From the NCBI GenBank assembly GCA_030587475.2, contig JAUQYZ020000050.1, forward strand, positions 1-36,337: DNA of 36,337 nucleotides. Direction: 5' to 3'. The DNA comes from Candidatus Sigynarchaeum calidifontis (GTDB taxonomy: Archaea > Asgardarchaeota > Lokiarchaeia > Sigyniarchaeales > Sigyniarchaeaceae). Shown one piece after another: positions 8,227 to 24,204 of this stretch (position 1 is the stretch's first letter; the number at the start of each line of letters is the position of its first letter). Both the position numbers and the translations under genes were made by a program. The notes beneath the pieces are model-generated. The model did not search any database, was not told the origin of the DNA, and was given only the letters and a program-made list of their open reading frames with translations.

Positions 8227-8362
8227 GATTTTTCACTTGCATCAAAGCCGATGATTTGATCAAAGCTGCAAGCATTATTGATTGTTTAGGCACCCGCATT
8301 AGCTTGGATAACGGGAACCACATCTCGCCTTTTTTTTTATAAGCAAAATGTTAATTCCCCCA

Positions 8363-8397
8363 CGAAAGTTTTATTGCTTGTGCAAGTCAATTGCACA
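8363..8397 (+). promoter_or_regulatory. BRE/TATA promoter plus palindromic operator TGTGCAA-N5-TTGCACA
   Basis: CGAAAG-TTTTATT at 8363-8375, followed by a perfect 7-bp inverted repeat at 8379-8385 / 8391-8397. Confidence 0.55.
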
Positions 8398-8454
8398 CGT
8401 TCACGCGTGAGGATTGATCCAAATCGCGTGGATACATTTCACGAGGAAACCAAT

Positions 8455-8769
8455 ATGAAGATTACCACGTCTTCACAAGCAAAAGAATACATCGAGAACG
8501 AGGAAAAGAAACGCGGCAAGCAATGTGTCATCGCAATCGCGGAATCGCAATATCGCAGTTGATCGGGCGCGGTCTGTAGCACCATCGTTGTCGATCTCGT
8601 TGACTCTGATGCTTTCTATCTCGAAAGTCACCGGGACGAGTTCACCAGGGAAGATGGTGGCTTCAGGCCCGTGTACGTCCTCAACAGCGTCCGGAAAAGC
8701 ATCCCCGAAACGTTCGAGGTTGACGCGTATGGTTGGGGGCCATTTAAATCCCTGGTCTTACGCCGGTGA
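8455..8769 (+). CDS. Putative selenoprotein (HesB-like / CC-Se-type small protein), 104 aa, in-frame UGA (8560-8562) read as Sec36
   Basis: GAGG SD and ATG at 8455. The frame stays open for 68 codons after the UGA: MKITTSSQAKEYIENEEKKRGKQCVIAIAESQYRS-U-SGAVCSTIVVDLVDSDAFYLESHRDEFTREDGGFRPVYVLNSVRKSIPETFEVDAYGWGPFKSLVLRR. The N-terminus follows the HesB/IscA-like pattern. A SECIS-like hairpin lies immediately downstream. Confidence 0.8.
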
Positions 8770-8778
8770 TTTCCCGTG

Positions 8779-8850
8779 ATCCCGCTCCGATGATCCCGCC
8801 CCGTCAAACGAACGGGGGGTGGGGGACGGGGACTGCAAGTCCCGCGGGAT
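8779..8850 (+). promoter_or_regulatory. Eukaryote-like SECIS element in the 3' UTR
   Basis: Helix I CTCCG(8785-89)/CGGGG(8827-31). Core ATGA(8790-93) opposite GA(8825-26). Helix II TCCCGCCCC(8794-8802)/GGGGTGGGG(8816-24). Apical AAA at 8806-08, 12 nt after ATGA. Outer helix ATCCCGC(8779-85)/GCGGGAT(8844-50). Confidence 0.8.
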
Positions 8851-8904
8851 TTTTTATCTCGATGATTGTCACGAAAACGAAGTGAATATCAAAGGTGCAG
8901 GCAC

Positions 8905-9348
8905 ATGGCGGATACGAGAACTGAAGATGACGAGCTGGATCAAATCCGGCAAAAGAAGCTAGCGAGCTTGATGAGAAGACAAGCATCGCCATCATTGCCA
9001 GGCGATGGAAAACCAATTCATGTCGAGTCAGTGGAACAATTCAAGGAAATCATAGAGAATTACCAAGACACGCCCATTCTCATCGATTTCTGGGCGGAAT
9101 GGTGCGGGCCATGCAGAATGCTCGCGCCCGTATATGAAAAAATTGCCGAGATGTACAAGAACCAGGCCATTTTCTTGAAGGTTAACTCGGACGAGCTTGC
9201 ATCGCTCGCCCAGTATTTCCGCGTGACGAGCATACCAGATGTCGTGCTTGTCCATCACAAGGAGGTCAAGGCGGTCTGGATCGGGCTGCGCCCTCTGGAA
9301 TTTTACAAGAGGGAGCTCGACAACCTGCTAGCATCCGTCGAACCGTGA
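8905..9348 (+). CDS. trxA: Thioredoxin
   Basis: IDFWAEWCGPCRMLAP active site and SIP cis-Pro motif. Archaeal-type N-terminal DELDQIRQKKL extension. Confidence 0.95.
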   Translation: MADTRTEDDELDQIRQKKLASLMRRQASPSLPGDGKPIHVESVEQFKEIIENYQDTPILIDFWAEWCGPCRMLAPVYEKIAEMYKNQAIFLKVNSDELASLAQYFRVTSIPDVVLVHHKEVKAVWIGLRPLEFYKRELDNLLASVEP

Positions 9349-9390: not shown

Positions 9391-9756
9391 ATGCAAGTGT
9401 ACAGGTTCTTCAATGCAAGCGAGAGCGATCCTACCCCTATCCAGCTTGAAAAGCTGTTCGACTGCTTGCTGGGGTTGTCCCGCGCCGAGATTTCCGTGCT
9501 CATGCGTATCCTCGCCCATCCAGGTAATTGCTGCCAGGAGCTAGCACGAGCGGAGAGAAAAGACCGTTCCGTCGTGCAAAAGGTGGTGAAGAAATTGTTC
9601 GATCGCGGCTTGATCCGGCGCGAGGAGCTCGAACGGGGTAAGTTGACATACATGCCTCTCCCGCCAGACGAGATGCGTGACTTGCTTCTGCGCCGGATCG
9701 ATGAGACCCGCTTGCGCATGATTGACGTGGTCTATCGGGCATTCGGTCGGGCGTGA
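9391..9756 (+). CDS. Winged-HTH transcriptional regulator (archaeal COG3355/TrmB/MarR-like)
   Basis: CLLGLSRAEISVL...ELARAERKDRSVVQKVVKKLFDRGLIRR...LTYMP pattern. Contains three Cys, including a CC pair. Confidence 0.8.
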   Translation: MQVYRFFNASESDPTPIQLEKLFDCLLGLSRAEISVLMRILAHPGNCCQELARAERKDRSVVQKVVKKLFDRGLIRREELERGKLTYMPLPPDEMRDLLLRRIDETRLRMIDVVYRAFGRA

Positions 9757-11292: not shown

Positions 11293-12507
11293 TCATTTTG
11301 CTTTTTTATTGCTTGCGAGCGGTGAAATGGCCCGAAGGGAACTCACGATCTCCTTTAACGTGTCCACGAAGCGATCTGCCATCTCTTTCGTCGTCGAACG
11401 CCCTATCGTGACCCGCAAGCTGCCGTGGGCGGTTTCCGGGTCCCGGCCGATGGCGAGGAGCACGTGGGATGCCTTCAAGTTATGGGAGGAGCACGCTGAC
11501 CCGGTCGACACCTCGAACCCTGCCAAGTCTAGACGCAAGAGCATCGACTCGCCCTCGACGTACTTCATGCTCACGTTCACGTTGTTCGGGAGCCGCTTGG
11601 TGCGGTGGCCGTTGAGCATGCTGTCGTCGATCTCGCGGAGGATCCGGTCGATCATCCAGTCCCGGATAGCCATTTCCCGGTTGCTTTCCTCGCTCATATC
11701 ACGGAACGCGATCTCGCAAGCCTTCGCGAGACCGGCAATCCCGGCGACGTTTTCAGTTGCGGGTCGGAAACCGCGCTCGTGGCCACCACCGTGGATGATT
11801 GGCTGCACGTACTTTCCGATTTTCTTCGTGAATCCACCCCCCTTGATGTACAAGAAGCCGACGCCCTTCGGCCCGTAGATCTTGTGTGCGGATGCGGAGA
11901 GCATATCGACGCCCAACTTGCTTGGGTCGGTGGAGATCTTGCCGAATGATTGCACTGCGTCCGTGTGGAACACGATCCCCCTGGCCGCGCATATCTCGCC
12001 AATCTCGGCGATCGGCTGGATCGTCCCGATTTCATTGTTCGCGTGCATGATCGTGACGAGGATCGTCTCGGGCGTGATGGCCGCACGGAATTTTTCCATG
12101 TCCAGGATGCCGTCCGCATTAACGGGCACTGCGGTGGTCTTGAACCCCCCCGCTTCGAGCTGCTTGACGGTATTCAAGACAGCTGGATGTTCGATCGCCG
12201 ACGTGATCACGTGGTTGCCCCGCTTGCGCCCGGCGAGCGCAGCCCCCTGGATGGCAATGTTGTCCGACTCTGTGCCGCTGCCCGTGAACACGATCTCCTC
12301 GGGCATGGCCCCTATACACCGGGCGACCGTGGCCCGCGCCCGCTCCACGATCTCCCGGGCATCCTGGCCGATCCCGTGCAGCGATGACGGGTTCCCTGGG
12401 TGGTGCCGGTACACGTCGACCATTACATCGAGCACCTCTGGCAATACTGGTGTCGTGGCGGCGTGGTCCAGGTATATTTTTTCTCCAGCATTCAAATCAA
12501 TGCACAT
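11293..12507 (-). CDS. iscS: Cysteine desulfurase (IscS/NifS group I)
   Basis: IYLDHAATTP, GNPSS, HTDAVQ, SAHKIYGPKGVG (PLP Lys) and STGSACSS (catalytic Cys). Confidence 0.95.
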   Translation of the reverse strand: MCIDLNAGEKIYLDHAATTPVLPEVLDVMVDVYRHHPGNPSSLHGIGQDAREIVERARATVARCIGAMPEEIVFTGSGTESDNIAIQGAALAGRKRGNHVITSAIEHPAVLNTVKQLEAGGFKTTAVPVNADGILDMEKFRAAITPETILVTIMHANNEIGTIQPIAEIGEICAARGIVFHTDAVQSFGKISTDPSKLGVDMLSASAHKIYGPKGVGFLYIKGGGFTKKIGKYVQPIIHGGGHERGFRPATENVAGIAGLAKACEIAFRDMSEESNREMAIRDWMIDRILREIDDSMLNGHRTKRLPNNVNVSMKYVEGESMLLRLDLAGFEVSTGSACSSHNLKASHVLLAIGRDPETAHGSLRVTIGRSTTKEMADRFVDTLKEIVSSLRAISPLASNKKAK

Positions 12508-12802
12508 CGACAAAACTATTGAATTCTATATCTCAATATCGCGCATGGTAAAAGAATTATCTTGGTTTTTCTAATGTATTCGCCCTAAGGTAAAACACGT
12601 GGAGATAAAATGTTCATTTGTTTCTGGAAAAACGCAGTGCTATCACTTCACGCGGTGTTTCCACGATTATACGTTACAGATTCGTTCGAAGCATAGCTTA
12701 TAATGTCTACGTTATGTATGGCAAGGAATAGAATATTTATCTATTTTAGAACCTAGTTTTTAGATGGTCTTACCTAGAGGACAACAATAGGTTGAAATAA
12801 AC

Positions 12803-23130: not shown

Positions 23131-24204
23131 GTGAATAAAACGATACACGAAAAGACTAACAAGAACATCGAACCCGAAGCGGATAACGCGCGCAAAGGAG
23201 ATATTCTCCTTTTACAGGCAGGCGATCTCGTCTCGGCCGATGTCAAGCTCATCGAAGCTAACGGTTTAGAAGTCGACGAGTTCGAGTTGACCGGGGAAAT
23301 TATGCCCGTGAAAAAGGAGATTGGTGAAGGAAAAGATATCAACGTGTATAATGGTAGTCGGGTGATAAGAGGGCATGCGAAGGGGGTCGTTATTGCAACC
23401 GGTGCAAAAACCGAGTACGGGGAAATCCTATCGATGCGCTACAGGCTAGTGAAGCGTAAAAATCCCCCCTTATTAAAAAAAAGGTTTTTTCTCTTACCCA
23501 TTCTCTTGATTCCGCATTTTCTAGTTGATTTCTTCATAGCTGGCGACCTTCTGCGCGGGTGTTTGATACACGTCGCAATCGCGTTCTTTCTCGTCTTTAT
23601 ACAGAATAGTGAATTGTTCAAATACATCCTTCTTTCACGTGAAGTTGAAAAATTGCAGACGAAACACGTCCAGTTCCATGACGAGACCGTATTGGAGGTT
23701 TTCGATTCCCTCGATGTTATCTGTTTCGACAAGACCGGAGTACTGACAACCCAAGACCTCGAAGTGAAGCAAGTCCATCTTGCCAACGGCACGCCGGATA
23801 AAGACTCGCGCATTTTCGACTTGATCCGCAATGCGTGTGCATTATGCAACGACATCGTCTTCTTGGAAAAGATAAAACATGCAGACCCCCTCGATAGAGC
23901 CATGTTATCCTTTGCATCAAGGAATGGTGTAGACATCTACGAGATCAAGTTGAAGTACAGGCGGATCTACGAGGAACCATTCGATTCAGAACGAAGGTAT
24001 ATGGCTTCTGGGTTTGAACTTGTTGGTGATAAAAAAAAACTATTCCTGGTAAAAGGAGATCCCGAGATCATAATGAAGATGTGTAAAACTTATATCACGT
24101 GCTCGGGAGACGAGAAAGAGATAGACCTGGATTTCATGACGGCGATTAATCCAAAAAACGAATCATTAAATGGCCCGATGGCCTTCCCGGGCAAGATCAC
24201 GTGA
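23131..24204 (+). pseudogene. Truncated cation-transporting P-type ATPase (A domain, phosphorylation site, part of N domain)
   Basis: GDLVSADVKL, DEFELTGE, ICFDKTGVLT, DPLDRAML, PFDSERRYM and VKGDPE are present. The ORF stops before the DPPR/TGD/GDGxND motifs and the C-terminal TM helices. Confidence 0.75.

Follow-up and report, generated by a model that had tools for sequence, protein, structure and literature searches.

A predicted short selenoprotein with an IscA-like fold and a eukaryote-like SECIS element in a Lokiarchaeial genome

The UGA-containing gene and its homologues

Within the window (the whole stretch of 36,337 nt analysed here), a gene on the forward strand at 8455–8769 starts with an ATG at 8455, preceded at a distance of 7 nt by a Shine–Dalgarno motif on the same strand (GAGGA, 8443–8447) whose GAGG is retained in relatives. 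The frame meets a TGA at codon 36 (8560–8562) in the context YRS-U-SGAVC, continues for 68 sense codons, among them the codon of Cys41 (8575–8577), the partner in a U-x4-C motif, and ends at a second TGA at 8767–8769. The first-pass annotation had described an ORF with a good Shine–Dalgarno sequence, a UGA at codon 36, 68 further sense codons and a second UGA, all of which are present, and had called the gene overlooked; it is indeed absent from the list produced by standard ORF calling of the window. Conservation among homologues, profile searches and a predicted structure together point to a product of 104 aa with an IscA/HesB fold, in which residue 36 would lie in the loop of a β-hairpin (strands 24–34 and 40–50). 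Judged from sequence, 8455–8769 is very probably a single selenoprotein gene, with UGA codon 36 predicted to be read as selenocysteine (Sec). An RNA-library contig from a relative (94% identical) spans 8395–8785 with the UGA intact, which is a weak hint, as carry-over of DNA is possible.

Searches with the read-through protein recovered homologues in five other genomes (31–81% identity), each with one TGA at the site of codon 36, and the UGA site is also shared by five independent contigs. With a profile built from six sequences, 38 of 400 Asgard genomes yielded 46 matches, of which 45 have one TGA, and a 40-sequence profile found matches in 86 of the 400; exactly one in-frame TGA is present in 95 of the 98 matches that the latter profile gave in Asgard genomes at E<1e-15. 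Among the UGA genes that were extracted, the TGA falls at the motif in 51 of 51, and position 36 is the sole invariant column among 40 family members. Conservation on both sides of the UGA, named as a check when the gene was first proposed, is confirmed by pN/pS values of 0.16 on the 5′ side and 0.19 on the 3′ side in seven close copies, indicating purifying selection on both.

The same data bear on the possibility that the locus is a nonsense pseudogene or a pair of small genes encoding 35 aa and about 60 aa. Public gene calls do divide it into ORFs of about 50 and 60 aa, the full matches returned by the initial protein search all corresponded to one half of the query, and one family copy of the cultured Promethearchaeum syntrophicum is annotated as a 51-aa hypothetical protein, DSAG12_04220, which corresponds to the C-terminal half. 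In the window genome, however, codon 45 reads GTT and no in-frame start follows the UGA before residue 73; codons 37–44, which would be non-coding under a split reading, show synonymous changes only, with no amino-acid change, among the seven close copies; both halves form one domain in the model; and the stop at this site in the extracted genes is always TGA, never TAA or TAG. Given the conservation, the pN/pS values, the synonymous codons 37–44 and a start only at residue 73, we regard both the pseudogene and the two-ORF annotation as ruled out, with a probability close to nil.

A second alternative to Sec is that the UGA encodes Trp (genetic code 4) or is decoded by read-through as some other, selenium-free residue. 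Of the full-length homologues in the protein library, 31 have Cys and 29 have Trp at site 36, and Trp homologues had been named at the outset as an argument against Sec. All four of the Trp records that were checked match their own DNA only if TGA is translated as W with code 4, that is, they are UGA genes mistranslated by gene callers, whereas two Cys records use genuine TGC/TGT codons and the natural sense replacements at the site are Cys. Furthermore, TGA ends 896 of 1593 long frames in the window genome, more than any other stop, the gene itself uses TGG for Trp94, and the sole tRNA with a UCA anticodon found in the genome is tRNA-Sec. A Trp or selenium-free reading is accordingly given a very small probability, and Sec remains the preferred reading.

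In a tree built without named bacterial sequences, the window gene's own family forms a clade supported at 100/97, which is joined weakly to the other U-x4-C clade (72/86). One Cys homologue (L070:117–422) nests within a Sec clade and represents a recent Sec-to-Cys change in which the SECIS element is retained and its core has changed from AUGA to UUGA. Paralogues at L079:1474–1806 and L082 (genomes G004 and G011) carry two adjacent UGA codons (K-G-U-U-G), with no obvious canonical SECIS element in the first 110 nt 3′ of the gene. At L027 (G208), and likewise at L021, L023, L024, L041 and L043, two or three paralogues (U-T-x3-C, a Cys form and U-S-x3-C) stand in tandem; every UGA copy in these clusters has its own SECIS element or a variant of it, and the Cys copy has none. 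UGA homologues with SECIS-like 3′ UTRs are also found in Asgard genomes beyond Lokiarchaeia (L073, L074 and L077, from G307, G180 and G174). Additionally, one record (G002, L089) is titled Candidatus Bathyarchaeota and its genome is placed in the Lokiarchaeial family of the window; it is probably mislabelled.

The SECIS element and the Sec machinery

Downstream of the gene, on the forward strand at 8778–8851, lies a predicted eukaryote-like Lokiarchaeial SECIS element, recognized by its fold, its recurrence in homologues and covariation, on which the first-pass annotation had not remarked. Its core begins 21 nt past the terminal UGA and 228 nt from the Sec codon, and is composed of AUGA (8790–8793), an upper stem of 8–9 bp with a loop opened by AAA (8794–8824) and GA (8825–8826). 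The fold further includes, on the same strand, a side hairpin (8829–8843) and a closing stem (8778–8785 with 8844–8851), which together produce a three-way junction.

A SECIS element is present downstream in 47 of the 51 UGA homologues, nearly always less than 50 nt from the stop, and TGA and AA are invariant among the 47 aligned elements. Because RNAalifold gave no consensus on the MAFFT alignment of these 47 elements, base pairs were counted on the named structure. Compensatory change is seen at all eight stem pairs, in 78 cells compared with 27 after shuffling, a count that exceeds every slid control; the percentage of paired positions is biased upward, as the elements were chosen with a pairing score. 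At the score of the window element, the search pattern gives 18 hits in 10 Mb on both strands, including selD, vhuU and hdrA-type elements. A covariance model of the elements returned the window site and one weak match only in the genome, the pattern scan performing better, and Rfam gave no meaningful match around the gene. No SECIS element was found 3′ of the Cys paralogue in the L027 cluster, nor of 29 Cys-type VhuD genes. Four of the 51 UGA homologues were without a canonical element in the scan, two of them looking like variants and two showing none. At L024:1498–1845, ACGA replaces AUGA, and at L020 a candidate SECIS overlaps the coding end; at L005 and L006, hairpins are present with no AUGA core.

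The side hairpin recurs 3′ of the GA in 40 of the 47 elements (6.6 expected) and in 10 of 11 independently chosen vhuD elements (1.4 expected). Such a hairpin on the 3′ side, its loop often containing GC(A/G), is a feature of Lokiarchaeial SECIS elements of several gene families (L122–L134; C15, C31, C63 and C153). In the window genome, SECIS elements lie 3′ of a vhuU-type peptide, two hdrA-type genes and selD (C15:631, C63:68815, C153:14294 and C31:15357).

The Sec machinery, which had been assumed for Lokiarchaeia in general, is represented in this genome by tRNA-Sec and SepSecS, located on the same contig, and by SelD, which contains an in-frame UGA of its own (G-U-S-C-K); both SelD and SepSecS score above their cut-offs. 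Candidates for EFSec (241.7 bits against a cut-off of 242.25, with the next GTPase at 163.7) and PSTK (103 bits against 290.5) fall below the curated cut-offs. Asgard selenoproteins have been recognized by at least three Sec machinery genes, a known selenoprotein gene and a conserved UGA with Cys homologues and conserved flanks (PMC11227280, Huang 2024); all of these are found here, namely the machinery, the known selenoproteins selD and a vhuU-type U-x-x-C peptide, and the UGA/Cys conservation. The genome also has two large tRNA arrays, one of 11 and the other of about 20 genes; among them is a tRNA-Thr that has an AGT anticodon, unusual for an archaeal chromosome, and the contig carrying them is possibly a mobile element or a contaminant.

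The Sec reading of codon 36 that was first proposed thus stands on Cys and TGA homologues, flank conservation and the Sec machinery of the genome, and we hold with high confidence that this UGA is decoded as Sec through the SECIS element. Codon 36 would be read by tRNA-Sec and EFSec under the direction of the element 228 nt downstream. Only 21 nt separate the SECIS core from the terminal UGA, which would escape recoding and end the protein, because a UGA too near a SECIS escapes recoding under the minimal-distance rule (PMC4989117, Mariotti 2016).

Gene neighborhood, fold and proposed function

Upstream of the gene, a TATA-box-like element on the forward strand, TTTATAAG (8336–8343), is kept in six of seven aligned upstream regions and is a probable archaeal promoter. 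Just 3′ of it, a palindrome (TGTGCAA-N5-TTGCACA, 8379–8397) is a probable operator and the sole site in the genome with 0–1 mismatches. Downstream, on the forward strand, are a thioredoxin gene (8905–9348; WCGPC, TIGR01068/PF00085), likely co-transcribed, and a gene for a TrmB/Lrs14-like winged-HTH regulator (9391–9756) which, from its domain match and neighborhood, is a candidate binder of the palindrome. Farther away, a cysteine-desulfurase-like gene (Aminotran_5) occupies 11293–12513 on the reverse strand, 2.5 kb downstream, and an ORF for a P-type ATPase (23131–24204, forward strand), just 357 aa long, is followed by short ORFs and is possibly a split gene.

Within the gene's own family the palindrome precedes the gene by 42–76 nt, as it does in one sister-family subfamily, and a contig without the thioredoxin and HTH genes is also without the palindrome. 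In three complete relatives it outnumbers its control (8 vs 3, 15 vs 2 and 8 vs 2). It stands upstream of thioredoxin reductase and NadA in two complete relatives, upstream of a CxxxxxxC gene that is thioredoxin-like by eye in two relatives, and upstream of a Cys-only paralogue in one; in the window genome, no palindrome precedes thioredoxin reductase. The form TGTGCAW-N5-WTGCACA, found at 8379–8397 and at L139, L140, L144, L150 and L154, probably marks a Lokiarchaeial regulon. A dsrE/dsrF/dsrH (tusDCB)-like operon in the window genome has a weaker palindrome overlapping its start (C140:76091). Ten genome loci, from two families, have a thioredoxin gene next to the selenoprotein gene, five with it downstream and five with it divergent; in G003 the thioredoxin–HTH pair is relocated and still together, and in G021 the pair is divergent from the family copy. 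Both the thioredoxin neighbor and the palindrome are absent from many homologues, including all of the largest Lokiarchaeial family.

AlphaFold2 modeling of the protein gave pLDDT values of 90.6 and 93.2. The best structural matches of the model are IscA, SufA, DsrR and their relatives, with IscA (1r94) at a Foldseek E of 2e-4, a TM of 0.63 and a VIA Z of 9.3–9.5 (rmsd 3.1 over 92 residues), and DsrR at Z 7.4–7.9; the link to this fold rests on the model, since PDB sequence searches gave nothing credible. Judging by position, Sec36 would occupy the hairpin loop that holds the first Cys of IscA. Over its whole length the model corresponds to IscA residues 1–92 only. The C-x-C ligands of IscA lie in the tail past this region, and the window protein, as modeled, is without the C-terminal CxC. 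Among the 51 UGA genes, Cys is present at U+5 in 28, at U+1 in 21 and at neither position in two, and within the last 15 residues in three. A U-x4-C arrangement with an additional upstream Cys had been proposed: U36-x4-C41 is conserved, but Cys24 is not, being present in 2 of 40 rows and replaced by Met in a close relative, so that Cys24 was rejected as a third ligand and is probably not functional.

With this fold, the selenoprotein might be an A-type Fe–S carrier or iron chaperone like IscA and SufA, in which Sec36 and Cys41 of two subunits serve as ligands. That IscA and SufA are the top structural matches speaks for this, as do the lack of any canonical PF01521 carrier found in the 89%-complete window genome, the nearby cysteine desulfurase, and the palindrome upstream of NadA, an Fe–S enzyme, in relatives. 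However, the model stops short of the C-x-C tail, Cys in the final 15 residues is confined to 3/51 genes, the desulfurase gene is linked only in close relatives and at one other locus, and the IscA-like DsrR, also matched structurally, is reported to be without Fe and Fe–S binding in the title of Grimm 2010, cited in PMC11406059. We therefore consider Fe–S carriage unlikely.

DsrR also enters into another possibility, that the protein is a carrier of S or Se (as persulfide or perselenide), a soft-metal or metalloid binder, or a regulator resembling DsrR. A single exposed Sec with a nearby Cys fits such chemistry, DsrR is among the top structural matches, the weaker palindrome overlaps the start of the dsrE/F/H-like operon, and, as read by eye from sequence, one sister subfamily lies beside a LarE-like sulfur transferase gene and another beside P-type ATPases. 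Yet these neighbors vary between subfamilies, the dsrE site overlaps the start codon and may be due to chance, and the window shows no linkage of the gene to selD, selB or a sulfurtransferase. A role of this kind appears improbable as well.

The thioredoxin neighbors, and a palindrome common with thioredoxin reductase in relatives, lead us to favor a thioredoxin-linked oxidoreductase, a redox role to which we assign roughly even probability and which we rank above both Fe–S carriage and the handling of S, Se or metals. More specifically, and again at about an even chance, the protein may be a small selenol oxidoreductase of a thioredoxin regulon, working through a pair formed by Sec36 and Cys41 or Cys37. 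For this locus we infer Sec insertion, a Se–S bond, a thioredoxin partnership and a regulator–operator pairing. Sec36, in an exposed hairpin loop, would pair with Cys41 (Cys37 in the U-C subfamily) in a selenenyl-sulfide/selenolthiol cycle; the neighboring thioredoxin would re-reduce the Se–S bond; and the adjacent HTH regulator would control the gene via the upstream palindrome. A broader and rather doubtful proposal is that of an ancestral, Lokiarchaeia-wide Sec oxidoreductase on an IscA scaffold (U-x4-C or U-C), fed by thioredoxin and belonging to an undescribed Asgard redox regulon with thioredoxin, thioredoxin reductase and the HTH regulator on a TGTGCA-N7-TGCACA operator, with a three-way-junction SECIS whose extra arm may recruit an archaeal SECIS-binding factor.

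Relation to known selenoproteins and SECIS elements

A survey of more than 400 Asgard genomes reported seven selenoprotein families, which it identified through homology with families already known, with HesB/IscA unmentioned (PMC11227280), and a 2026 review gives 11 selenoprotein families for all archaea, the window family missing (PMC13188914). The initial suggestion of an undescribed member of the Asgard selenoproteome agrees with its absence from both lists. A literature search, covering mostly papers outside subscription journals, retrieved no Asgard HesB or CC/Se selenoprotein and no three-way SECIS. As the family, which extends across Lokiarchaeia, occurs in 86/400 Asgard genomes, often in several copies, Asgard selenoproteomes have been undercounted, and as it is mis-annotated even in cultured P. 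syntrophicum, the prediction is testable now. A short gene with its own SECIS element, a recoded UGA and a terminating UGA also represents a compact natural reporter for Asgard decoding without SBP2, and the locus offers a redox-linked context for HesB/CC-Se proteins of unknown function.

The decoding mechanism itself is already of a known type. The window element shares with the lokiSECIS, or type I eSECIS-like element, the AUGA, a stem of 8–9 bp, an A-rich loop, the GA, a position near the stop and a gene ending in UGA (PMC4989117; PMC11227280). Its core spacing is 31 nt, compared with the usual 29 (PMC4989117), and lies within the type I model (PMC11227280); an upper stem of 7–15 bp, a loop of 8–20 nt and covariation, which delimit type I eSECIS-like elements, are all found. 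The side hairpin and closing stem are not mentioned for the lokiSECIS/type I element in those portions of PMC4989117 and PMC11227280 that describe it.

The initial label of a HesB/IscA-like protein holds for the IscA fold of the model, but the nearest curated family is the bacterial CC/Se motif family (NF041239) and not the HesB-like family TIGR01911. NF041239 is the only recurring family, matched by 18 of 40 family members at E<0.01, and close relatives match its profile positions 1–88 of 91. Against a cut-off of 40, the window protein scores 14.9 bits and one relative 40.2; no score above the cut-off was obtained in the 41 genomes searched by DNA. PF28096 is recorded for a close relative.

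The CC/Se motif family (NF041239/PF28096, CC_Se_fam), first predicted in Moorella thermoacetica, likewise consists of small proteins, about 100 aa long, whose Sec or Cys lies in the equivalent region. Its motif, given as CxxU in the 2026 review, where the family is not marked as archaeal (PMC13188914), is otherwise a vicinal Cys/Sec pair, whereas the window protein has U-S-G-x-x-C and a sister subfamily U-C-G; decoding differs as well, relying on a bacterial SECIS beside the UGA in CC/Se genes and on a eukaryote-like SECIS in the 3′ UTR in the window gene. TIGR01911, from Methanococcales and anaerobic bacteria, is also an IscA-related archaeal selenoprotein of unknown function, and its HesB-like member has been 75Se-labelled in M. 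maripaludis (PMC11097638). It has a UxGP motif, in contrast to U-S-G-A in the window protein, and a different SECIS type, and it gave no match in the window genome at E≤1 (cut-off 66 bits). The A-type carriers IscA and SufA (PF01521), and DsrR, share the predicted fold at 15–18% identity, with Sec replacing Cys in the window protein, which scores 13.7 against the PF01521 cut-off of 26.3. Formally a member of none of CC/Se, TIGR01911 and the A-type carriers, the window protein is a divergent CC/Se relative with an IscA fold.
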